In this document: positions 9,010 to 23,846 of the stretch, piece by piece
Position numbering within the stretch: the first letter of the stretch is position 1
Layout: each line of letters starts with the position of its first letter
NCBI GenBank assembly: GCA_037045245.1
Contig: JBAOHR010000004.1
Location: 751-64,750 of the forward strand
Direction of reading: 5' to 3'
From: Gemmatimonadales bacterium
GTDB lineage: Bacteria; Gemmatimonadota; Gemmatimonadetes; Gemmatimonadales; GWC2-71-9
DNA: 64,000 bases
Translations under genes and position numbers: made by a program
The notes under the pieces: generated by a model
The model's input: the letters and a program-made list of their open reading frames with translations, nothing else
Database searches by the model: none
Told to the model about the DNA's origin: nothing

Positions 9010-9570
9010 ATGGGAACCATGATCCTCCTCGGACTGATCGCCGCCTTCCTCGTGATGTGCATCGCCGCCTTCAATCGCCTGATCGCGCTGAAGGGGCAGG
9101 TACAGAACGGCTGGAAGCAGATCGACGTGCAACTCAAGCGGCGCCATGACCTGATCCCCAACCTCGTCGACACGGTGAAGGGGGCGCTCCAGTTCGAACG
9201 CGGCACGCTCGACGCCGTGATCCAGGCCCGGACCCGCGCCGTTGGCGCCACCGGCGTCAAGGACGTGGCGCAGGCGGAAGGGGCGCTGACGCAGGCGCTC
9301 GGCCGCCTCTTCGCGGTGACCGAGGCCTACCCCGACCTCAAGGCGCTGGGGAACGTGAGTCAGCTGCAGGAAGAGCTGACCTCGACCGAAAACCGGATCG
9401 CCTTCTCGCGCCAGCACTACAACGACGTGGCCACGACCTACAACGTGGTGCAGCAGCAGTTCCCCACTTCGTTGGTGGCGGGGCTCGCGAAGGCCTCGGT
9501 CGTGGAGCTGTGGGAGATCACCGACCCGGGCGAACGCAACGTGCCGAAGGTGGACCTCTCCCTCCCGTGA
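9010..9570 (+). CDS. lemA: LemA family protein
   Basis: QIDVQLKRRHDLIPNLV, EAYPDLKA, ENRIAFSRQHYN. Confidence 0.93.
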   Translation: MGTMILLGLIAAFLVMCIAAFNRLIALKGQVQNGWKQIDVQLKRRHDLIPNLVDTVKGALQFERGTLDAVIQARTRAVGATGVKDVAQAEGALTQALGRLFAVTEAYPDLKALGNVSQLQEELTSTENRIAFSRQHYNDVATTYNVVQQQFPTSLVAGLAKASVVELWEITDPGERNVPKVDLSLP

Positions 9571-10595
9571 TCCCGTCGCCCGCCAGTGGCCGCGTGCGCC
9601 GGGATCTCTTCACGCAACAGGAGGAGAACCGGCGGAAATCGTCGTGGCTCGTGGCCGGCTTCGTGCTCCTCTTCGCGTGGGTCGGCTTCGGTGGGGACTT
9701 CGCGTTGATGCGCGCGACCCCCGACGACTCGCTCGGCTATCGGCACCGCGTGCCATGGCTAGGTATCGGCGTCACGCTGGTGGCCGCGGGCGTCGCGTGG
9801 GGTGCGTGGCGGCATGGTGACCGCCAGGTCCTCTGGTCGGCGCGCGCGATGGAGCTGGTGAACGCCGTGACCCCCGAGCAGCAACGGCTGGTGAACGTGG
9901 TCGACGAGATGGCGATCGCCAGCGGCCTGCCGCGCCCCACCGTGTGGATCGTCCCGGATGACGACCCCAACGCCTTCGCCACCGGACGCGATCCCGACCA
10001 CGCCTCGATTGCCGTCACGGAAGGACTGCTGACCCGGCTCGATCGCGACGAACTCCAGGCCGTCGTCGCCCACGAGATGGCGCACGTGGCGCGCTACGAC
10101 ACGCGCCTGATGACGCTCGTGGCCGCCATGGTCGGCGCGATCGCCTTGTTGAGCGATGGGCTCGGCCGCGCCCTCTGGCATTCCGGTCGAAGCGGGAACG
10201 CGGCGGGGCGCTCGATGGGCGGCCTGGTGGCACGACGGAGTGGTGGTCGAGGATTCCCGGCCGCAGCGATCCTCCTGGCGATCTGGCTCGTGACGCTGCT
10301 GATCGCACCGATCGTCTCACGGCTCGTGGCGATGGCGATCTCGCGCAAGCGGGAGTTCCTTGCCGACGCGACGGCGGCCCAGTACACGCGGAATCCCGGC
10401 GCGCTGGCTTCGGCCCTGGCCAAGCTCGACGAGGCGCGCGGCCCGACCCACCGGATCGGACGCGCCGCGACTCATCTGTGCATCGTCGATCCGGGCGATC
10501 AAACCGTCCAGCGACTGCGGGGAATGCTCGGCAACCTGATGTCGAGCCATCCGCCGATGGCCGAGCGCATCGCCCGCCTGCAGGCGATGGGCTAA
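9567..10595 (+). CDS. htpX: M48 family zinc metalloprotease (HtpX-like)
   Basis: PNAFATG, AHEMAH (HExxH), SRKREFLAD, SHPPMAERI. Coupled to lemA. Confidence 0.9.
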   Translation: MIPSPASGRVRRDLFTQQEENRRKSSWLVAGFVLLFAWVGFGGDFALMRATPDDSLGYRHRVPWLGIGVTLVAAGVAWGAWRHGDRQVLWSARAMELVNAVTPEQQRLVNVVDEMAIASGLPRPTVWIVPDDDPNAFATGRDPDHASIAVTEGLLTRLDRDELQAVVAHEMAHVARYDTRLMTLVAAMVGAIALLSDGLGRALWHSGRSGNAAGRSMGGLVARRSGGRGFPAAAILLAIWLVTLLIAPIVSRLVAMAISRKREFLADATAAQYTRNPGALASALAKLDEARGPTHRIGRAATHLCIVDPGDQTVQRLRGMLGNLMSSHPPMAERIARLQAMG

Positions 10596-12194: not shown

Positions 12195-12968
12195 TTACTT
12201 CCGGTTGCGGCGGCGCTTGGCGGCGGCCATACCAGCCAGGCCAGTCGCGAGCAGCGTCATCGTGGCCGGCTCCGGGACGACTTCCTGCGGCGGCGAGCCA
12301 TTGTCGGCGGTGATGCGGAACATCATGTCCTGATAGTCGAAGTCACCCGCGGCATTGTCCTCGACGCCGGCGATCCAGGTCATCGGATCGAGGCGGCCGA
12401 AGCCGAAGAGCGCGAACTGCTGGTCCGTGTCCGAGTAGGCGCGGCCACCACCGACCAGGTCAACGTAGATGCCCCACGAGACGGCCGGCGAGAAGCTGCC
12501 AAGCGTCGGAAGGCTGTTGAAGCTGATCGTCGAGCTGCGATTGCCGACCGCGAAGATACCCCAATCGAGGTTCATCCCGGCGACGTCACCACCGGTGCAC
12601 GGAGCCGAGCAGCCCGGGCTGGTCGTGCCACCGAGGTACGACAGCGTGTAGTCGCCGGCGCTGAAGATGATCGGCGCCCAGTTGCCGCTGACGTTCCAGT
12701 ACTCGGTCGCGTGCAGGCCGGTGTACGGGAGCCAGGTGTTCGGCCGCTGGTTGATGCAGGCGGTCGGGGCAGCGCCGGTGACGATGAAGCCCGAGTTGCA
12801 GGTGTTGAAGGTCGTCTGGGGCGAGCCCAGGCCCAACCCGTCGGCCGAGAGGTTGTCCCAGAACTCGGCGCCGTCGTTGTTCGCCGTGAACGACGAAAAC
12901 GCCTGGGCCTGCAGTGGGGCGGCGCTGATCACGGCCGCGGCGGAGAGAGCAAGTACAAGATTCTTCAT
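12195..12968 (-). CDS. PEP-CTERM exosortase-sorted surface protein (DUF4114-like motif)
   Basis: Signal peptide, GVED...DFDYQDMMF motif, C-terminal VVPEPATMTLLATGLAGMAAAKRRRNRK. Confidence 0.92.
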   Translation of the reverse strand: MKNLVLALSAAAVISAAPLQAQAFSSFTANNDGAEFWDNLSADGLGLGSPQTTFNTCNSGFIVTGAAPTACINQRPNTWLPYTGLHATEYWNVSGNWAPIIFSAGDYTLSYLGGTTSPGCSAPCTGGDVAGMNLDWGIFAVGNRSSTISFNSLPTLGSFSPAVSWGIYVDLVGGGRAYSDTDQQFALFGFGRLDPMTWIAGVEDNAAGDFDYQDMMFRITADNGSPPQEVVPEPATMTLLATGLAGMAAAKRRRNRK

Positions 12969-13167: not shown

Positions 13168-14217
13168 CTACCGATGGACGGCCGCGATCGCGGCGATCAG
13201 CGGGGTCGCATCGAAACGGACCGGATCGGTGCAGGGGAGGCCGGTTTCCCGGGCCGCGTCCTCGCACGCCTGCCGCGCGGCGGCGTCATCCAGGTCGTAG
13301 GTGTTCAGCGCGATACCGATCACCCGCGACGGGTGGACCGCACTCGCCATGGTCTCGTAGAGCCGGACGTATTCCGAGAGCGGCGGGATCGCCAGCCAGG
13401 CCTGCGGGCGGTAATCGCCGATGAACTTCCGGCTCGCCTGGTGGCAGAGGATCATCGCGTCGGGGCAACTGCCGTGGAGCAGCCCCAAGGTCACCCCGGA
13501 GTAGCCGGGGTGATTGATGCTCCCCTGCCCTTCGACCAGCACCACATCGGCGCCCTCGGCGCCTTGCAGCGTGATCCGCTCGGCGGCGCCGGCGATGAAG
13601 TCGGCGACGACGGCGTCGACGGCGATCCCCCACCCCTCGATCATGATCCCGGTCTGGCCGGTGGCGACGAAATTGGTGCGGAGCCCGCGCGCCTTGAGGC
13701 CGTCGACGAGGCGAAGCTGGGCCGTCATCTTGCCGACGTTGCAGTCGGTGCCGACGGTGAGGACGCGGATGGCCGAGGTGGCCTTGGCGCGGCCGGCGGC
13801 GACCGGAAGATCGGCCGGCGGGCGCCGCAAGTCTTCGATCCGTCGGCCGTGGGAGCGCGCCGCCTCGGCCAGGAGGGGGTCGTCGCCGAGAAAGGTGTGG
13901 AGCCCGCTGACGATGTTGCAGCCGCCCTCGAGGGCCTCGCGCAACCAGGCGCGCCACTCGTCGGGGAGTCGGCCGCCCACTGGCGCGATCCCGATCAGGA
14001 CCGAGTTCGCGCCGAGGGCGAGTCCTTCGCGCATGGTGGCGATCACCGGAATGTCGCCACCCGCGCCGAGGATGTCCTGCGAGGTCTTGCCGGCGTGCTG
14101 CCGGTCGAGCACCGCGACCACCCGATCGGGCTGGAAGCGGATGATGGAGTTCGCCGTCTTCGACGTGAGCGGCCCGAAATCCCCATCGGCCAGGATCAGG
14201 TGACGCGGCGCGTTCAC
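13168..14217 (-). CDS. DUF1611 family protein (DgcN-like P-loop protein)
   Basis: KTANSIIRF, IVSGLH, VGTDCNVGKMT, ATGQTG, VEGQGS, GLLHGSCPD. Confidence 0.88.
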   Translation of the reverse strand: MNAPRHLILADGDFGPLTSKTANSIIRFQPDRVVAVLDRQHAGKTSQDILGAGGDIPVIATMREGLALGANSVLIGIAPVGGRLPDEWRAWLREALEGGCNIVSGLHTFLGDDPLLAEAARSHGRRIEDLRRPPADLPVAAGRAKATSAIRVLTVGTDCNVGKMTAQLRLVDGLKARGLRTNFVATGQTGIMIEGWGIAVDAVVADFIAGAAERITLQGAEGADVVLVEGQGSINHPGYSGVTLGLLHGSCPDAMILCHQASRKFIGDYRPQAWLAIPPLSEYVRLYETMASAVHPSRVIGIALNTYDLDDAAARQACEDAARETGLPCTDPVRFDATPLIAAIAAVHR

Positions 14218-14963
14218 GATCCGCTGGACTCCGTGATGATCGTCTCACCACCCTGGCCGAGCTGCTTCGGCGCCTCGGCCTTCGGGGCCGCGAGCATCCC
14301 CATCTTGGCCTTGAGCTCGAGCAGCTGCTGGTCCGACGAGCCGTGGTACTCGAGCTGCTCGAATTCCTTGGCCAGCTTGTCGCCGGTGAACTCCTCCTGG
14401 AGCTCGGCGGCGGCGAGCGCCTTCCGCTCGTTGTTCTCGATCTTCTCCTGCATCCGCTCGAACGACTCGAAGGCGCTCTTGTCGCCCATTCCGGAGAGGG
14501 TGTCCTGGATGCGCTGCTGGGCCTCGGCGCGCCGGGCGCGGGCGACCAGGATGTTCTTCTTCCGCTTGGCTTCCTCGATCTTCTCGTTGAGCTGGCGGAG
14601 CGAGCCCTTGAGCGAGTCGGTCTCCTGCTTGCTCTTGGCCCAGGTCTCGTGCAGCTGCTGGGCGCCCTGCAGCGCCTCGTTGTAGCGCATCAGCGCCTGC
14701 TTGGCGAGATCGTCGCGACCTTCCTGGACGGCGAGCATGGCGCGGCGCTCCCAGTCCTCGGCCTGCTTCTTCATCGCGATCGAGTCGGCCTCGAGCTTCT
14801 TCTCATCGGCGATCGCCTGGGCCACCTGCTGGCGCGCCTTGTCGAGCTGGCTGCGCATGTCCACGATCAACTGGTTCAGCATCTTCTCGGGGTTCTCGGC
14901 CCGGGAGATGAGATCGTTGAGGTTGGAGCGCAACATCGTGGCGAAACGGTCGAAGATCCCCAT
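14214..14963 (-). CDS. pspA: Phage shock protein A / IM30 family (bacterial ESCRT-III-like)
   Basis: MGIFDRFATMLRSNLNDLISRAENPEKMLNQLIVDM, W.RRAMLAV..GRDDLAKQAL, FERMQEKI, LLELKAKMG. Confidence 0.95.
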   Translation of the reverse strand: MGIFDRFATMLRSNLNDLISRAENPEKMLNQLIVDMRSQLDKARQQVAQAIADEKKLEADSIAMKKQAEDWERRAMLAVQEGRDDLAKQALMRYNEALQGAQQLHETWAKSKQETDSLKGSLRQLNEKIEEAKRKKNILVARARRAEAQQRIQDTLSGMGDKSAFESFERMQEKIENNERKALAAAELQEEFTGDKLAKEFEQLEYHGSSDQQLLELKAKMGMLAAPKAEAPKQLGQGGETIITESSGS

Positions 14964-14968
14964 GGCGA

Positions 14969-15355
14969 TTACCTCTCCCCGAACGCCGCGAGGGCGCCCA
15001 CATGCGACGCGAGGGCAAGGGCGAGCGAATCGACGCTCGCCTCGAACTCGCTGAAGTCGAGATCGGACAGCAGCAATGCATCGGTGAGGACGACGTGGTC
15101 GCCCTCGACGCCGTACGAGCCGTGCACCAGCTCGCGCGCGTTGAATTCCAGCAGGCGGCGGCAGAGTTCGCCGGCGCGCACCGAGTCGCTCGGGAGCTGC
15201 ATGACCCGCACCCGCAGCACCAGCACCGGCGGCGCGTAGTGGACGATCAGCTCGGCGTCCTCCGCCGTGCGGACCAGCCACATGTCCTCGGCCACGGACT
15301 CGACCGGCAGGTCGAGCCGGTCGAGATAGGCCTGCACGTCATCACGATTGGTCAT
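14969..15355 (-). CDS. CesT/YbjN-like (type III secretion chaperone fold) protein
   Basis: 128 aa, acidic, RRLLEFNARELVHGSYG...LDFSEFEASVDSL. GGAGG RBS; ends 5 nt before pspA. Confidence 0.72.
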   Translation of the reverse strand: MTNRDDVQAYLDRLDLPVESVAEDMWLVRTAEDAELIVHYAPPVLVLRVRVMQLPSDSVRAGELCRRLLEFNARELVHGSYGVEGDHVVLTDALLLSDLDFSEFEASVDSLALALASHVGALAAFGER

Positions 15356-15441
15356 CGGCGATTCCTCCGGCCCGGACACGCCGGGCGACGTCTGAAACGT
15401 AGTGCGGGCCCAAAAGACCCGCCAAGCACCCCGCCGCCATC

Positions 15442-15795
15442 TCATCCCGCCGCCGGCGGTTCCTCACGGCGCGCCAGCAGCCGCTCCGAGAAGTCCTGCC
15501 GCTCCTCCAGTTCCGCCACCCGCGTCCGAAGCTCGTCGAGCTCCGCGTAGAGCTCCTCGGGCAGTTCGGCCGGGCCGCTCGACTCGGGGAGCTCGCCCGA
15601 AATCCTGGCCGCCAGCGCCTTGCCGAGCGGGCCGCGGAGGATGAAGGTGCCGCCGGCCACGACCGCGAACCAGATCGGCACCGAGACCGGGCCGAGGACC
15701 ATCGTCGCCTTCATCAGCCCGCCGAAGACCGCCACCGCGGCAAGCGCAATCCACCCACCGCTGCCCCCGCCCCGCTGCCGCGGCTCATGCGCCAT
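15442..15795 (-). CDS. PspB-like small membrane protein, paralog 5
   Basis: TM + GPLGKALAARI + coiled coil ELEERQDFSERLL. Confidence 0.75.
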   Translation of the reverse strand: MAHEPRQRGGGSGGWIALAAVAVFGGLMKATMVLGPVSVPIWFAVVAGGTFILRGPLGKALAARISGELPESSGPAELPEELYAELDELRTRVAELEERQDFSERLLARREEPPAAG

Positions 15796-16183
15796 GGCGA
15801 CCCTCGCCGATCCGCGGTTGCGCCAGCAACCGCTCGGTGAACTCCAGCCGTTCCTCGACCTCGGCGATCCTGGCGTAGGCCTGCTCGACCTCGCCGCTGG
15901 TCAGGCCGCGGTGCTCAAGCTCGGCCAAGCGTGATTCCAGCTCCGCCATCCGCGATGCGGAGAGGCCATCGACGCCGCTGCCTTCGAGCATGCCAGCGAT
16001 CGCCCTCCCGACCGGCCCCATGAAGAGGAGGAAGCCCATGCCGACGAGACCGAACAGCCCCACGATGAGGAACTCGAATCCCTTCCGCGCGGCCTCGTCG
16101 ATCAGGAAGGCCATGAACAACATGCTGCCGAACGCGAGGAAGAGGACCAACCCCATCGCCATCATGCGCGAGAACCGATTCAT
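15785..16183 (-). CDS. PspB-like small membrane protein, paralog 4 (2 TM)
   Basis: GPVGRAIAGML + EVEERLEFTERLL. Confidence 0.75.
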   Translation of the reverse strand: MNRFSRMMAMGLVLFLAFGSMLFMAFLIDEAARKGFEFLIVGLFGLVGMGFLLFMGPVGRAIAGMLEGSGVDGLSASRMAELESRLAELEHRGLTSGEVEQAYARIAEVEERLEFTERLLAQPRIGEGRHGA

Positions 16184-16479
16184 TCCGAGCCCCCTGCGAT
16201 CCGCGGCTGCGCCGCCTGCTGCGCGAGCATCCGCTCCGTGAACTCCACCCGTTCTTCCATCTCGGCGAGTCGCGCATACGCCTGCTCCACCTCGCCGCTC
16301 GTCAGTCCGCGCTCCTCGAGATGGGCCAGCCGTGTTTCAAGTTCGGCGATCCGCTCGGCGTTGCCACCGCTGATCCGATCGGCCCAGGCCTTCAGCACCG
16401 GCGAGATCGCCCACATGGCGGTGCAACCGATACCACCCATGGCCAACCAGAAGGAGAAGGCGCCGATGCCATCACCCAT
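16180..16479 (-). CDS. PspB-like small membrane protein, paralog 3
   Basis: SPVLKAWADRI + EMEERVEFTERML. Confidence 0.75.
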   Translation of the reverse strand: MGDGIGAFSFWLAMGGIGCTAMWAISPVLKAWADRISGGNAERIAELETRLAHLEERGLTSGEVEQAYARLAEMEERVEFTERMLAQQAAQPRIAGGSE

Positions 16480-16839
16480 CTAGCGCCCACCCGGCTCAGG
16501 CAGTCGTGCCGATTCGGCGCGCTGCGTCAACATCCGTTCGGCGAAGTCCATCCGGTCCTCGATCTCGTGCATCCGGGCGACCGACTGCTCGAGATCGGCG
16601 ACGCGATCGCGCAGCGTCTGCACCTCGTCGAGCAGCGCCGGCTCCTGTCCGCGCTGCTCGATCCGACGCGCCCACGCGCGCACCAGCGGATAGAAGACGA
16701 TCGCGCCGACGATGATCAGCAGCGTCAACACCGCGACGGGGGCGATCCAATCCGGCGGCCCGCTGCCGGCAATGATCACCTGGGGATCCGGCGTGTCCGG
16801 TGGAATCGGTGGCGTCGGCAATTGGGGCAGTGCCATCAC
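16480..16839 (-). CDS. PspB-like small membrane protein, paralog 2 (Pro-rich N-terminus)
   Basis: YPLVRAWARRI + EIEDRMDFAERML. Confidence 0.75.
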   Translation of the reverse strand: MMALPQLPTPPIPPDTPDPQVIIAGSGPPDWIAPVAVLTLLIIVGAIVFYPLVRAWARRIEQRGQEPALLDEVQTLRDRVADLEQSVARMHEIEDRMDFAERMLTQRAESARLPEPGGR

Positions 16840-17108
16840 TGACCTCCCGTGGCGGCGTCTGCCCGGTCGCCCTTGGCGAGCAGGCGCTCGGTGAACTCGA
16901 CCCGCTCATGCAGCTCGTTGACCTCGAGGCGCAGGCGATCGAGCTCGTCATAGACGGCCGGGTCCGGCTCGAGCGCCGGGAGCGGCTGGGCGCCGTGGCG
17001 GAGCCGGTCGGCAAAGGCCTTTCCGACGGGCGAGAACGACAACACGATCAGGGTGCCGCCGCCGAAGATGCAGAGGATCGCAATGATGTCTTCCACGGAC
17101 GGCCTCAT
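16836..17108 (-). CDS. PspB-like small membrane protein, paralog 1
   Basis: SPVGKAFADRL + ELHERVEFTERLL. Confidence 0.75.
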   Translation of the reverse strand: MRPSVEDIIAILCIFGGGTLIVLSFSPVGKAFADRLRHGAQPLPALEPDPAVYDELDRLRLEVNELHERVEFTERLLAKGDRADAATGGQ

Positions 17109-17130
17109 CGAGAAAGGGAACGCCCCCTTG

Positions 17131-17157
17131 TACGGGGGGGCGCGCGGGAATGTTTCA
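17131..17157 (-). promoter_or_regulatory. ECF (sigmaW-like) promoter TGAAAC-N17-CGTA
   Basis: Exact -35 and -10 motifs ending 22 nt upstream of the first PspB-like gene. Confidence 0.6.
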
Positions 17158-17177
17158 GCCGGAAACAGGGCCCACGA

Positions 17178-18068
17178 TCAGGAGGTCGGCCCCTTCCTGG
17201 GCTTCAGCTGGACCAACCGCTCCTTGGCGAGCCGCCGCCCGGTCGGGGTGGCGGCCAGCCCGCCGCCGGCGGTTTCCCGGTACCGGACGTCCATCTCGCG
17301 GCCGATCTGGCCCATGGTATCGATGACTTCGTCGACGGGAATCGGGAACTCGACCCCGGCCAGGGCCATCTCGATGCCGGCGAGGGCCATCGCGGCTCCG
17401 GTGGCGTTGCGGTACACGCACGGGACCTCGACCAGCCCGCCGAGCGGGTCGCAGACGAGGCCGAGGGTGCCCTGCATCGTCAGCGCCACGGCATGCATCG
17501 CCTGCCGCGGGGTCCCCCCCAGCAGTTCGACGCCGGCCCCTGCCGCCATGCCGGCGGCCGCCCCGGTCTCGGCCTGGCAGCCCCCTTCGGCGCCGCTGAG
17601 CGAGGCCCGGACGGCGACGACTGCCCCGATCAGGCCGGCGGTGGCGAGGGCGCGGACCATCGCCTCCTCGGAGACCGGATGACGGCGCGCGATCCCCAGC
17701 AGGGTCCCGGGCAGCACGCCGGCTCCGCCCGCCGTCGGCGCGGCGACGATGACGCCCATTGCCGCGTTCACTTCCTGCACCGCGAGTGCGGCCGCGAGGG
17801 CATCGGTGAAGATGGTGTTGGCCAACGGCCCCCGCGCATTCGCGAGCCGGAAGGCATCGCCGCCGACGAGGCCGCTGACGGAGTGCAAGTCGCCCTTGAG
17901 CCCGCGCTCGACGGCGTGCTGCATGACGTGGAGCGCGCGGCGGAGCCCGGCCTCGACTTCCTCGCGGGTCCGGATGCCGGTCTCCGCTTCGGTGCGCAGG
18001 GCGAGTTCGCCCAGCGAAATCCCCTGGCGCTCGGCATCGCCGACCGCCTCGTTCAACACGTCGTACAT
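17178..18068 (-). CDS. sdaAA: L-serine ammonia-lyase, Fe-S dependent, alpha subunit
   Basis: EVNAAMGVIVAAPTAG, SGAEGGCQAE, LGLVCDPLGGLVEVPC, RETAGGGLA. Confidence 0.93.
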   Translation of the reverse strand: MYDVLNEAVGDAERQGISLGELALRTEAETGIRTREEVEAGLRRALHVMQHAVERGLKGDLHSVSGLVGGDAFRLANARGPLANTIFTDALAAALAVQEVNAAMGVIVAAPTAGGAGVLPGTLLGIARRHPVSEEAMVRALATAGLIGAVVAVRASLSGAEGGCQAETGAAAGMAAGAGVELLGGTPRQAMHAVALTMQGTLGLVCDPLGGLVEVPCVYRNATGAAMALAGIEMALAGVEFPIPVDEVIDTMGQIGREMDVRYRETAGGGLAATPTGRRLAKERLVQLKPRKGPTS

Positions 18069-19027: not shown

Positions 19028-20848
19028 TTATCCGGTCGGGTGGCCGTCGTCCGCGCGCGGCAACCGCGGCGGCGCCGCCCGCGGGGCGCCGAAGATGTCC
19101 TGCGAACGCACCGAGCCCTGCACGGCGTCGAGCATCGCCTCCAGTTCCTTCCGCGCGCGCTTGAGCCCGTACCGGAAGGAGACGCGGTACAGCCCCACCA
19201 TGGCACCGCCGACGACGGCGAATGCCGAGAGCCCGATCGGCGCCGCCAGCAACAGCGCGCCCTTCGCCGCAGCCAGGCCGATCCCGACCGCGGCCCCCCC
19301 GCCGCCCAGCCCGGCCCCGAGCCAGAAGCCCACCTTGGCGTTCTTGGCCACGCCGCTCCGCAGGTCGGTGGTGATGGTGACGTCGCAGCGCCGCGGATCG
19401 GTCGGATGCGCGTGCAGCGTGACGCGCAACTGGTAGGCGTCAATCACGGAGAGGTAGTAGCGGAGCATCGAGAGGCCGCTGCCGCCGACGTAGTCGCCCG
19501 ACGAGAGGGCGCGCACGCCGAAGGTCAGCACCCCGCCGTCGAGCGGATGGCCACCGACCGTGTCGCGGAAGAGGAGCTCCCAGGGATGCGCGGGAAAGAT
19601 CTTGCCGATCGCCTCGAGGGTCTGCACCGGCGTCGCGTGGATCGTGCTGGTGACCTGCATCGAGCGATCGCTCGTCCCGACGATGAAGGTCGCGAAGCGG
19701 TCGCGCCCTTCGCCGGAGAGCACCGGCACCGTGCCACGATCCGCCTCCGCCGGCAGTTCGGCGAGCGCGAGCTGGACGAATTCCGCGCCGATCCCCGCCT
19801 CGACGGCAGCGGCCTCGACGTCGACCCGCCGGTAGCCGCTGGTCGGCGCGGACGGCTGCACCCCGGTCGCATACGCCTCGGCCTGCGCCGAGCGATCCTG
19901 CACGCGGCGCGCGGCATCGGCCTGCAGTTGCGCAGCGCGCAGCCACACCGCCTTGGCGGCCTCCTCGCTGAGCACCGCGTCGGGCACGGCGCTCGGTCCG
20001 CTCTGCGCCTGCTGCAGCGCCTGCGTCAGCGCCTCGGCGAGCGCTTCGCCAGTGGCGTAGCGTTCCGCCGGGTCCTTCCGCAGGCAGCGGTCCACCACCA
20101 GCGCGAGCGGAGCCGGCACCCCGGGGGCGAGCTCCGACAGCGACGGCGCCGCACGCGTCGCCTGCATCAGCAGCACGGCGGAGGCCTGCGGGGCGTCGAA
20201 CGGCAGGCGCCCGCTGAGCAGCTGGAAGGCGACGACGCCGAGGGCATAGAGGTCGCTGCGGCCGTCGAGGTCGCCGCCGCTGACCTGCTCCGGGCTCATG
20301 TAATGGACCGACCCCATCACCATGCCATCGGCGGTCAGCGACGAGGTGCGCGCGTCCCGCGCAATGCCGAAGTCGGTCACGGTGACGCGCCCGCTGCCGC
20401 GCTCCAGCATGATGTTCTCGGGCTTCACGTCGCGATGGATCACGCCGCGCGCATGCGCGTAGGCGAGCGCCCAGGCCGCCTCGCGCAGGACGCGCACCGC
20501 CTCGCCGGGCGCCAGCGGGCCGCGCGCGGCGAGGCGCTCGGCCAGGGTCTCGCCGTCGACGAAGCCCATCGTGAAGTAGACCAGCTCGTCGACGCGGTCG
20601 GCGCGATAGATCGGGACGATGTTCGGATGGGAGAGCTGCGCGGCCGTGCGGGCCTCGCGCAGGAACCGCTCGCGGATGCCGGCATCGCTCGCCAGGGCGG
20701 GCGGCAGCAGCTTGATCGCCACCATCCGGTCGAGCGAGAGCTCGCGGGCAAGGAAGACGATCCCCATGCCACCGCGGCCGAGCTCGCGCTCCAGCGTGTA
20801 CTGCCCGGCGAAGCGCGGGCGCAGTTCGTCCAGCGTCAACTCGGTCAC
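19028..20848 (-). CDS. Hanks-type Ser/Thr protein kinase with C-terminal membrane domain
   Basis: [28 protein letters not shown], and two C-terminal hydrophobic helices. Confidence 0.93.
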
Positions 20849-20893
20849 GGCCGCTCCACCGGCAGAAGGGTCGGATCGCCCACGGGGGGGCTC

Positions 20894-20920
20894 GACGAAC
20901 GACGCTGGCGACGGGTTTCG
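20894..20920 (-). promoter_or_regulatory. Candidate ECF promoter CGAAAC-N17-CGTC
   Basis: Same spacing as the 17131-17157 motif, upstream of the kinase. Confidence 0.45.
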
Positions 20921-20939
20921 TCGCGCAGCGCAACGCGGC

Positions 20940-23846
20940 TCAGCGAATGCCCAGCGTCCGGGCGAGGAATCGGCCGGTATGCGATCCCGGCACCAGCGCC
21001 ACCTCTTCGGGCGTGCCGGCCGCGACGATGGTGCCGCCGCGCACGCCGCCCTCCGGGCCGAGGTCCACGACCCAGTCGGAGGTCTTGATCACGTCGAGGT
21101 TGTGCTCGATCACGACCACGCGTGTTCCCCTTGTCGACCAGTCGGTGCAGGACTTCGAGCAACAGGCGGACGTCCTCGAAATGCAGGCCGGTGGTGGGTT
21201 CGTCGAGGATGTACAGCGTACGACCCGTATCCCGCTTCGCGAGTTCCGTCGCCAGCTTGACGCGCTGCGCCTCGCCACCGGAGAGGGTCGTCGCCGCCTG
21301 CCCAAGGTGGAGGTAGCCGAGGCCGACGTCGTTGAGGAGCGAGAGCTTCTCGGCGATCCGCGTCTGCGCGGAGAAGAAGTCCATCGCGTCGGCCACGGTC
21401 AGTTCCAGCACGTCGGCGATGCTCTTCCCCTTGTAGCGGACCTCGAGCGTCTCGCGATTGTAGCGGCGGCCCTTGCAGACCTCGCACGGGACGTACACGT
21501 CGGGCAGGAAGTGCATCTCGATCTTGACGAGCCCGTCGCCCTGGCACGCCTCGCAGCGGCCACCCTTCACGTTGAAGGAGAAGCGCCCCGGCCCGTAGCC
21601 GCGCATCTTCGCCTCGGGCAGCTGCGTGAACAGCTCGCGGATCGGCGTGAAGAGCCCGGAGTAGGTGGCGGGGTTGGACCGCGGCGTGCGACCGATCGGC
21701 GACTGGTCGATGTCGATGACCTTGTCGAGCTGGTCGAGCCCCTCGATGCGGTCGTGCGCCCCGGGCAGCACCTTGGCGCGATAGAAGTGGCGCGCCAGCG
21801 TCTGGTAGAGGATGTCGGTGACCAGCGTCGACTTGCCCGACCCGGAGACGCCGGTGATCGAGACGAAGCAGCCGAGCGGGATCTCGACGGTCGAGGCCGC
21901 TGGAGGTTGTTCTCGCGCGCGTTGGTGATGCGGAGGCGCCGCGCCGGATCGCGCGGGCGCCGCACCGCGGGCACCGGGATCGCGCAGCGTCGTTGCAGAG
22001 ATAGCGCCCGGTGAGCGAATCGGGGTCGTGCCAGCGATCTCGTCGATCGTGCCCTCGGCGACGACCTCGCCGCCGATGCTGGCCGGCGCGCGGGACCGAG
22101 GTCGATCAGCGTGGTCGGCGGCGCGGATGGTGTCCTCGTCGTGCTCGACCACCAGGACGGTGTTGCCGAGGTCGCGCAGCCGCGCGCAGCGTGTCGAGCA
22201 GCCGCTCGTTGTCGCGCTGGTGGAGCCCGATGCGACGGCTCGTCGAGGATGTAGAGCACGCCGACGAGGCGCGAGCCGATCTGCGTGGCGAGGCGGATGC
22301 GCTGCGCCTCGCCGCCCGAGAGCGAGCCGGCCGAGCGGTCGAGCGTGAGGTAGTCCAGGCCGACGTCGGCGAGGAAGCGCAGCCGCTCGATCACTTCCTT
22401 GAGGATCGGGCCGGCGATGTCGGGGTCGACGGCGCCCGCCTTGCCGTCGACCGACCGGGATCCCCTCGAAGAACGCGATCGTCTCGTCCACGCGAGAGCG
22501 CCACGACGTCGCCGATCCCCTGCCCGCCGACCAGTCACGGCGAGCGACTCCGCCTTGAGGCGCGTCGCCGCCTGCAGACGATGCAGGGACGCTCGACCAT
22601 GTAGCCCTCGAGGTCGGTGCGCACCGAGTCGCTCGAGCGACTCGCGCCAGCGCCGCCCCACGTTCGCGAGGATGCCCTTCCCACTCCCCTTCCGTTTCCT
22701 TGCTGCGCCCGCCATCCGCCACCCAGGTGATCTTCTTCCCGGGCGCCCCCTCGAGCAGGACCTTCCGCACCGTCGGCGAGAGATCGCGCCACGCGCTGTT
22801 CAGGTCGAACTTGTAGACGCCGGGCGAGCGTCGGCAGCACGACGCTTGCGGAGGTAGCCGGTCCGGTTCGCCCCAGGGGAGCACGACGCCCTCGAGGATC
22901 GAGATGCTGCCGGGTCGCCGCAGCGACCAGCTCGGCATTCGGCACGCGCGATGGTGCCGAGCGCCGTGGCATTCGCGCGCACGCGCCGAAGGGCGAGTTG
23001 AACGAGAACTGCCGCGGCTCGAGCTCGGGGAGCGAGAGGCCGCAGGTCGGGCAGGCGAAGCTGCTCGCTGAAGAGCCGCGACTCCTGCGCCGCCGGCTTG
23101 GTCGTCGTGTCGCACGATCTCGACGACGCCCATCGGCCGACGCGCAACGCGGTCTCGATCGAATCGCACCAGCCGCGGCCGATCGCTCTCGCGCACGACG
23201 AGCCGGTCGACGATCGACGGCGATGTCGTGCTTGATTCTGCCGACGATTGAGCGCCGGCACCGTCGGTGAGGTCGTGTGTCTCGCCGTCGACACGCACGC
23301 GCGCGATAGCCCTGCTTGCTGCAGGTCCTCGATGAGGTCGCGGAACTCGCCCTTGCGGCCGCGCACGATCGGGCGCGAGCGACCTCGATGCGCGTGCCCT
23401 TCCGGCCAGCGCCGAGGACTGGTATCGCCGATCTGGCCCGCCGATCTGACCGCGCGATCGGCGTCCCGTCAGTTCGGGCAGTGCGGCACGCCGGCACGGG
23501 CGCAGAGGAGGCGCAGGTAGTCGTAGACTCTCGGTGACGGTGCCGACGGTCGAGCGCGGATTCTGCGCCGGTGGTCTTCTGCTCGATCGAGATCGCCGGC
23601 GAGAGCCCCTCGATCGCATCGACGTCCGGCTTTTCCATCAGGCCGAGGAACTGGCGCGCGTAGGCCGACAGCGATTCGACGTAGCGTCGCTGCCCCTCGG
23701 CATAGATCGTGTCGAACGCGAGCGACGACTTGCCCGACCCCGACAGGCCGGTGATGACCGTCAGCGCATTCCGCGGAATGCGGACGGTCGACGTTCTTGA
23801 GATTGTGCTCGCGCGCCCCTCGGACGACCAGGAACTCTTCAGCCAT
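20940..23846 (-). CDS. uvrA: Excinuclease ABC subunit A, with many frameshifts (probably sequence errors)
   Basis: [77 protein letters not shown] spread across frames. Confidence 0.93.

Follow-up and report, generated by a model that had tools for sequence, protein, structure and literature searches.

The 64,000-nucleotide stretch analysed here (the window) comes from a Gemmatimonadales bacterium (GCA_037045245.1, contig JBAOHR010000004.1, positions 751 to 64,750 of the forward strand) and contains a phage shock protein (Psp) locus of eight tightly packed open reading frames (ORFs) on the minus strand, 17108-13168. These encode five small paralogous membrane proteins, A-E, followed by a CesT/Tir-like protein, the bacterial ESCRT-III protein PspA and a DUF1611/DgcN-like protein (Table 1). 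The locus is a real and conserved variant of the Psp system that is apparently not in print, and it features an unnamed, expanded family of PspB-like proteins and an extracytoplasmic function (ECF) promoter. All eight ORFs are found where the first-pass annotation, which was made from the sequence alone, had placed five tandem paralogs with a CesT-like gene, pspA and DUF1611. Its statement that pspC and pspF are missing extends to the whole genome, which is 95% complete: there is no match to PspC, and none of 8 enhancer-binding-protein matches is over the cut-off for PspF (TIGR02974). The genome has one copy of pspA.

Genes A and B overlap by 4 nt, B and C abut, C and D overlap by 4 nt, and D and E overlap by 11 nt. 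Downstream, the gap between E and the CesT-like gene (cesT) is 86 nt and that between cesT and pspA is 5 nt, and pspA overlaps the DUF1611 gene by 4 nt. The start of gene A is most likely the GTG at 17096, which matches the start of its orthologs, and the gene upstream of the array is sdaA, on the same strand, in place of the divergent pspF of the classical Psp system. The arrangement suggests that the array, cesT and pspA are co-transcribed. Contigs from 4 RNA-library runs (22 listed) give short, near-identical cover of 16795-17181, 15167-15483 and 14899-15102, of which the second spans the E-cesT junction and the third the cesT-pspA junction; the depth is low and DNA may be present, so that neither a transcript nor its start or level can be read from these contigs. 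A hairpin is located at 15385-15405, in the E-cesT spacer.

Table 1. Features of the array-cesT-pspA locus, in positions of the window
Feature	Position	Strand	Remarks
ECF (SigW-type) promoter sequence	17131..17157	-	-35 TGAAAC, 17-nt spacer, -10 CGTA
Paralog A, 86 aa (90 aa from ATG 17108), one membrane helix	16836..17096	-	in most conserved subfamily
Paralog B, 118-119 aa, Pro-rich N-terminus, one membrane helix	16480..16839	-	orthologs under purifying selection
Paralog C, 99 aa, one weakly hydrophobic membrane helix, longer coiled coil, LTSGEV insert	16180..16479	-	
Paralog D, 132 aa, two membrane helices, LTSGEV insert	15785..16183	-	
Paralog E, 117 aa, two membrane helices	15442..15795	-	usually last in array within genus
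CesT/Tir-like chaperone-fold gene, 128 aa	14969..15355	-	CesT_Tir_1 PF22550 E 3e-24
pspA (bacterial ESCRT-III), 249 aa	14214..14963	-	PspA_IM30 PF04012 E 7e-49
DUF1611/DgcN-like gene, overlaps pspA stop codon	13168..14217	-	PF07755 E 6e-76; NF041892 below cut-off

The proteins A-E are mutual paralogs: BLASTP gives a match of E 6e-7 or better in each of the 10 pairs, with 28-53% identity, C and D being the closest (53%). Hydropathy analysis assigns one or two membrane segments to each protein, and each features a P-h-x-[KR]-A helix followed by a coiled coil that ends in E-R-x-[DE]-F-x-E-R-[LM]-L. Membrane segments, a Pro-rich N-terminus in B and a conserved coiled-coil tail motif had been described at first pass, and hydropathy and motif bear this out in 5/5. 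The AlphaFold2 model of paralog A, built from a 97-sequence alignment, consists of helices 2-21, 23-33 and 46-83 (mean pLDDT 91, pTM 0.46) and is that of an N-terminal membrane helix with a helical domain that is predicted to be cytoplasmic. A fold search with this model against the PDB returned nothing at E 0.001 or better, which is uninformative for a three-helix chain.

The dN/dS values of the genes are 0.03-0.30 when the two closest genomes are compared and 0.15-0.50 for a third genome, with paralog A at 0.03-0.15, and this purifying selection led to the rejection of an ORF artefact as an explanation of the array. One rival explanation, which follows the first-pass annotation, is that the array is a set of diversified sensors: each variable N-terminus would respond to its own trigger (antibiotics, phage proteins, secretins), and the constant tail would pass the signal to PspA. 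The paralogs have strongly different N-termini, the copy number ranges from 2 to 14, the tail is portable, as its fusion to a TM2 domain indicates, and the N-terminal dN/dS of paralog E against genome G006 is near neutral, close to 1 (0.55/0.59). Against the two closest genomes, however, the N-terminal dN/dS of the paralogs is 0-0.4, and most copies have almost no periplasmic part able to bind a ligand. A FastTree phylogeny of 215 sequences (88 columns) contains a clade with support 0.96 that holds paralog A among 37 members from 34 loci, and smaller clades are also common to several genomes. The input for this tree was 240 profile matches, of which 33 were filtered out for wrong length, N residues or a weak membrane segment, a filter that also took four solo and five window copies; 8 of these nine were restored. 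The nearest relative lies in the same array for only 12 of 209 array copies, and the median best identity is 64% to another genome vs 43% within the array. Recent tandem amplification in this genome was rejected on the same count. The variety of the paralogs is old and maintained, since the N-terminal dN/dS is low, nearest copies from the same array are rare and subfamilies are common across genera; middle copies have been gained and lost, and the array does not resemble the product of an arms race. The rapidly varying input ends of the first-pass annotation are therefore not retained. The sensor explanation has only a slim chance of being correct; the data fit old specialisation rather than an arms race, and the paralogs may have a static sensing role.

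Three sets of loci were used to follow the linkage of the array to pspA; because the loci share descent and the sets may have members in common, the counts are not independent. Set 1 consists of 20 loci picked from the best clusters in the genus and a sister family, set 2 of 20 loci picked from profile matches, mostly in other genera, and set 3 of the best 80 loci from a genome collection. In set 1, pspA and cesT follow the array in 19/20 loci and the remaining locus stops at a contig end. In set 2, where arrays have 3-13 copies, pspA follows the array in 20/20, with cesT between them in 8/20; the other 12/20 arrays abut pspA without a cesT match, so the link between array and pspA outlasts the link to cesT. 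Set 3 has 17/80 loci that are cut within 1.3 kb of the last copy, and pspA follows the array in all 63 untruncated loci, with cesT between the two in 52/63; the 59 loci with enough flank contain 2-14 copies. The first-pass annotation had proposed a survey of pspA linkage as a test of its claim, and the unlinked outcome was not seen in the 63 untruncated loci or in the 20 loci that are mostly from other genera. Genome G006 contains two complete array-cesT-pspA loci on different contigs (L026, L027); this genome has 6% contamination and may be a mixed bin.

The promoter, which is absent from the text of the first-pass annotation and was found in this analysis, is a TGAAAC-N17-CGTA sequence at 17157-17131 that is the sole match in the window, with 0.02 expected by chance. 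The TGAAAC/CGTA elements match the Bacillus subtilis (B. subtilis) SigW consensus (PMC5758882). A GAAAC-N16/17-CGT site precedes the first copy in 20/20 inspected loci and, in set 3, in 63/76 arrays vs 93/2744 background windows, which include the promoters themselves. A GAAAC-type site lies upstream of or inside the array in 14/20 loci of set 2, and before the operon in 8/10 genomes of distant families. The strict motif has 12 matches in the genome, 12/12 outside called genes, and a scan of spacers of 10-24 nt peaks at 17. Matching sites precede genes for an M48 protease and an outer-membrane efflux protein, nfeD-floA (as a CGTC variant) and an anti-sigma-like gene. The latter is directly behind a sigma factor gene (C7:360182), one of 23 sigma region-2 matches in the genome. 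Among NCBIfam models, SigW fits this sigma factor best (E 7e-43, under the equivalog cut-off), and the SigW-like factor would be the one that reads the array promoter. A sigma-70 promoter scan gave none; a sigma-54 site was not searched for directly, and an ECF-type promoter is present at the array. Within L066:683-3977 (C7), the TGAAAC/CGTA site behind the SigW-like sigma gene is followed by the anti-sigma-like gene and two more genes, and the sigma gene itself has no such site within 250 nt upstream. This layout would give negative feedback without positive autoregulation. A G/C hairpin at 17123-17139 overlaps the -10 element and recurs in the closest relatives.

Homology of the family to PspB is only suggested. 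The best E values of the window proteins against PspB are 0.52 (Pfam) and 0.059 (NCBIfam), under every curated cut-off, and the PF06667 cut-off is passed in 0/61 genomes. There are 13 sub-threshold PF06667 matches, of which those in G087 and G134 are on mapped array genes and those in G063, G128 and G140 are within ~1.3 kb of an array match. Among 97 family members, 3 have weak PF06667 matches and 14 match TIGR02976 at E up to 0.05, the best being 7e-6. In the Atlas, the nearest named cluster for two of the paralogs is PspB (0.80 and 0.79), and these matches are leads only. Of the first-pass label "PspB-like", the architecture and the position are therefore kept, and membership in PspB is not, as no curated cut-off is reached. 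A remote homology of the family to PspB is somewhat more likely than not.

PspB and the C-terminal domain of PspC (PF04024), from the pspFABC system of proteobacteria, likewise combine a small membrane helix with a cytoplasmic coiled coil and are encoded beside pspA. The part that binds PspA in Escherichia coli (E. coli) and Yersinia is reported to be the PspC C-terminus, and the Yersinia equivalent of PspC V105 is needed for this binding (PMC6003685). The PspC C-terminus is regarded as a divergent PspB domain, and duplicated pspB is known (Ravi et al. 2024, PMC11237479). The heptads were aligned by eye, with no statistical significance, as R-I-Q-A-L-E-S-I-L in PspB, R-L-R-E-M-E-R-Y-V in PspC and R-L-D-F-A-E-R-L-L in the family, and in this alignment, which is likewise not significant, the last L of the family falls on E. 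coli PspC V105. Two features of the family set it apart from PspB/PspC: an additional helix, amphipathic and of the form P-h-G-x-A, and the invariant D-F-x-x-R patch. The array of 2-14 copies is upstream of pspA, whereas pspFABC has one or two copies downstream; the array operon has no PspC domain and an ECF promoter, whereas pspFABC relies on PspF/sigma-54. PspC is found in only 15/74 genomes of the window's family, and it is on another contig wherever the array position is also known.

Other known systems resemble parts of the locus. The CesT-like gene directly before pspA, here by 5 nt, corresponds to the CesT/Tir-PspA dyad of the E. coli yjfI-yjfJ type, which is described both on its own and within larger operons; of the latter, three types are given (band-7/AAA+, spermidine-synthase-like and ATP-grasp), and they are without such an array (PMC11237479). 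In B. subtilis, pspA-ydjGHI and liaIH likewise place PspA under a SigW-type promoter with floA/nfeD, and small membrane proteins from the same operon recruit PspA; pspA-ydjGHI and floA are reported as SigW targets, and B. subtilis PspA as needing membrane anchors (PMC8581546). These anchors (YdjG/H/I, LiaI) are single copies from other families, and their models are not among the Pfam or NCBIfam matches listed for the array proteins. The array is not described in Ravi et al. 2024 (PMC11237479), where the string "Gemmatimon" does not occur in the main text or one supplement, its web tables being a place where such genomes could be listed. The work of Popp et al. 2022 (PMC9239133) shows no such array either, and genomes of this kind could be listed in external data files of that paper. 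The literature searched, from which subscription papers are largely absent, contains nothing on the family under Gemmatimonad, PspA and ESCRT-III, in agreement with the first-pass view of a candidate for an undescribed system.

The heptad register of the conserved core of the coiled-coil tail is R(g)-V(a)-x-E-L(d)-E(e)-E-R(g)-L(a)-D(b)-F(c)-A(d)-E(e)-R(f)-L-L(a). The R-h-x-x-h-E sequence is a trimerisation motif of short coiled coils, and it is present in 112/202 family tails vs 7/132 coiled-coil-like windows in other proteins of the genome; this control replaced an earlier shuffle control (119/215 vs 12.5), which destroys heptads. The paralogs are thus likely to form trimers. The F of the tail is conserved at 99%, the following R at 100% and the preceding D at 88%, and these three residues fall on the outer b, c and f positions of the heptads. 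The D-F-x-x-R patch would be a partner-binding surface, because D, F and R are near-invariant despite their outer positions. A short motif of the [RKQ][LI][PGE]xG type lies behind the tail helix in 74/229 family proteins vs 9 in shuffles, and 34/47 PspA proteins have the same tail pattern vs 4 in shuffles; the pattern was set after viewing the sequences, so that the shuffle test overstates significance. The PspA of the window, which is 29% identical to E. coli PspA, carries a conserved [KR]Q[LI]GxG motif in its C-terminal extension. The extension is encoded at 14214-14270, where the motif is also given as [KR]Q[LI][GP]xG and, in its conserved form, KQLGxG; many array proteins end in a similar motif of the [RKQ]L[PG]xG kind. 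The [RK]QL[PG]xG-like ending that is common to PspA and array proteins is possibly a docking motif. Complex predictions with three copies of paralog A and PspA 1-225 scored 0.06 and 0.13 against a mark of 0.32; the controls were not folded, which makes the scores evidence neither way.

The locus is best read as a SigW-regulated Psp variant in which multiplied proteins with PspB/PspC-like tails likely form trimers that tether PspA, and this reading as a whole has about an even chance. Envelope stress would release the SigW-like sigma factor, and the array, cesT and pspA would be expressed together from one SigW-type promoter. Coiled-coil contacts would join the paralogs into trimers, possibly mixed, that are anchored in the membrane, and the invariant cytoplasmic tip would recruit PspA to the inner membrane, directly or via the CesT-like protein, taking the role that PspBC has in E. 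coli. Control would be exerted by an ECF sigma factor and an anti-sigma factor, as is the case with pspA-ydjGHI in B. subtilis, instead of through sequestration of PspF by PspA. The additional paralogs would represent subunits of old specialisation, each with its own membrane part and all with the same docking tip. The function of the locus would be membrane repair.

Several observations weigh against tethering by the tail. PspA binding by the tail is suggested by gene order and by analogy, and PspA proteins are reported to bind membranes without adaptors (PMC13051332). The range of 2-14 copies rules out a fixed-stoichiometry complex of all copies. The likeness to PspB stays under all cut-offs: hhalign gives 9% probability over 23 columns with a narrow PspB alignment (Neff 1.4; three attempts at a diverse alignment yielded almost only close enterobacterial sequences) and 0.65% against E. 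coli PspC, and the model for the unrelated GspM matches 18/97 members, more than the 14/97 of PspB. Additionally, family genes occur in the interval from bshC to murJ, within a pair of histidine kinase and response regulator genes, and beside ECF sigma genes. In 10 genomes of distant families, which were searched from pspA, a single divergent family gene precedes cesT-pspA in 3 and none does in 7, and 5 of these 7 have a GAAAC-type promoter. PspA can therefore work without a copy encoded in its operon, since 7/10 distant genomes lack the family gene there. The single copy in the 3/10 genomes sits between the promoter and cesT-pspA, a layout that resembles a one-anchor ancestral state. A wider profile found 2-8 family matches elsewhere in five distant genomes. 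The array thus represents a gene that has expanded in families f1 and f3 and that can otherwise be single in the operon or missing from it, because the distant families have one operon copy or none and yet have matches elsewhere.

In another explanation, the paralogs are themselves membrane-protecting effectors that form oligomers in the membrane, plug or chaperone damaged membrane complexes and stand beside pspA only through a common SigW-type regulon. It agrees with cesT-pspA operons that lack the array, with solo family genes that carry their own ECF-type sites away from pspA, and with the report that Yersinia PspBC guard against secretin damage without PspA (PMC9239133). The rest of the regulon, however, is dispersed around the genome, whereas the array stays with pspA in 63/63 loci, even without cesT, and the family tails have a short motif in common with the PspA tail. 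The effector explanation is considered unlikely, and if it were correct, the array would still stand for a large family and a type of Psp operon that are both new, though of narrower interest.

The family also occurs away from pspA, namely solo after bshC, fused to TM2, and beside two-component and ECF genes. The genome of the window has four more family matches outside the array. A divergent solo gene directly follows bshC in four genomes across the class (L002:5289-5603 on C11 of the window's own genome; L262, L263, L270), and in the window's genome it is followed by murJ, the lipid II flippase gene. The tail of the bshC-adjacent gene, EExxFLxxLL, is like that of the copy that occurs singly in the operon of distant families (clade of 4). 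In 4/5 relatives searched, the tail is fused behind a TM2 domain in a single 127-aa ORF (L255-L259), an architecture that may be seen as a parallel to PspC; the copy of the window's genome (L004:4977-5356, C11) is apparently frameshifted in a C/G run. The TM2-tail gene lies behind a tRNA-like sequence. A search for longer fusion proteins gave 2 matches, of which the one inspected, P0123, looks like neighbouring copies joined by frameshifts, and so do several oversize matches of the 97-sequence profile. As read from translations, a histidine kinase gene and a response regulator gene flank one or two family genes in L264, L266 and L267 of family f2.

These contexts are relevant to a further explanation, in which the tail binds a regulator or protease (an anti-sigma factor, histidine kinase or enhancer-binding protein) instead of PspA and the array provides membrane-bound signalling inputs, as PspBC do for PspF. 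Homologs between kinase and response regulator genes in two f2 genomes and, in others, directly up- or downstream of ECF sigma genes (read from translations) speak for it. No regulator gene travels with the array in the mapped loci, however, and the genome has no PspF ortholog over cut-off. Position 37 of PspA is R or K in 47/47 of these proteins, vs the glutamate of E. coli that is needed for PspF inhibition. Signalling through a regulator is judged improbable, and tethering of PspA remains the preferred reading of the array.

The five-sequence profile matches 74/74 genomes of the window's family (4-20 matches each), 15/31 of family f2 (1-3 each) and 0/15 in three families of other classes. 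The 97-sequence profile recovers at least 4638 clusters at 50% identity, and the Atlas places paralog A among Gemmatimonadota clusters without a common Pfam family. By title, the best 80 genome-collection loci comprise 78 Gemmatimonad- entries, one "uncultured bacterium" and one 1.9-kb contig labelled Chloroflexota; this search gives best matches only, so the range of the family is not bounded by it.

Membrane targeting of bacterial ESCRT-III is known from few systems with one or two anchors (PspBC, LiaI, YdjGHI), and the array represents an unannotated family that is expanded to 2-14 copies before pspA in Gemmatimonadota of a group that is widespread and for the most part uncultured. The regulon logic that joins SigW, PspA and flotillin in Bacillus would be extended to a Gram-negative phylum. 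The proteins are small, expressible candidates, and with the D-F-x-x-R patch they make it possible to ask whether one PspA is served by many adaptors. A more far-reaching and quite doubtful proposal is that bacterial ESCRT-III is served by a layer of adaptors in varying combinations. As many as 14 operon paralogs would mix with solo and TM2-fused copies into heterotrimers, the membrane parts would engage different clients (the lipid II flippase, flotillin domains, secretion machines), and one invariant tip together with the CesT-like chaperone would nucleate PspA polymers. Such a layer would be a bacterial analogue of the many adaptors that recruit eukaryotic ESCRT-III, and the [RK]QL[PG]xG tail would be a docking motif for a common partner of PspA and the adaptors.

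The DUF1611 gene had been counted as part of the unit at first pass, but it is not fixed in relatives and was rejected as a core part, being separated from pspA or not seen in many of them. DUF1611/DgcN is a common neighbour but an optional one, and cesT is also optional. Just downstream of the locus is a gene for a PEP-CTERM protein (12195-12968, minus strand), which has near-full-length identical contigs in all 4 RNA-library runs at depth 33-115, a poor gauge of expression. A uvrA-like gene at 20845-23619 (minus strand; labelled from its translation) is broken across several frames, probably by assembly errors. At 9010-10595 on the plus strand, lemA followed by an HtpX-like M48 protease gene forms a further envelope-stress pair near the locus.

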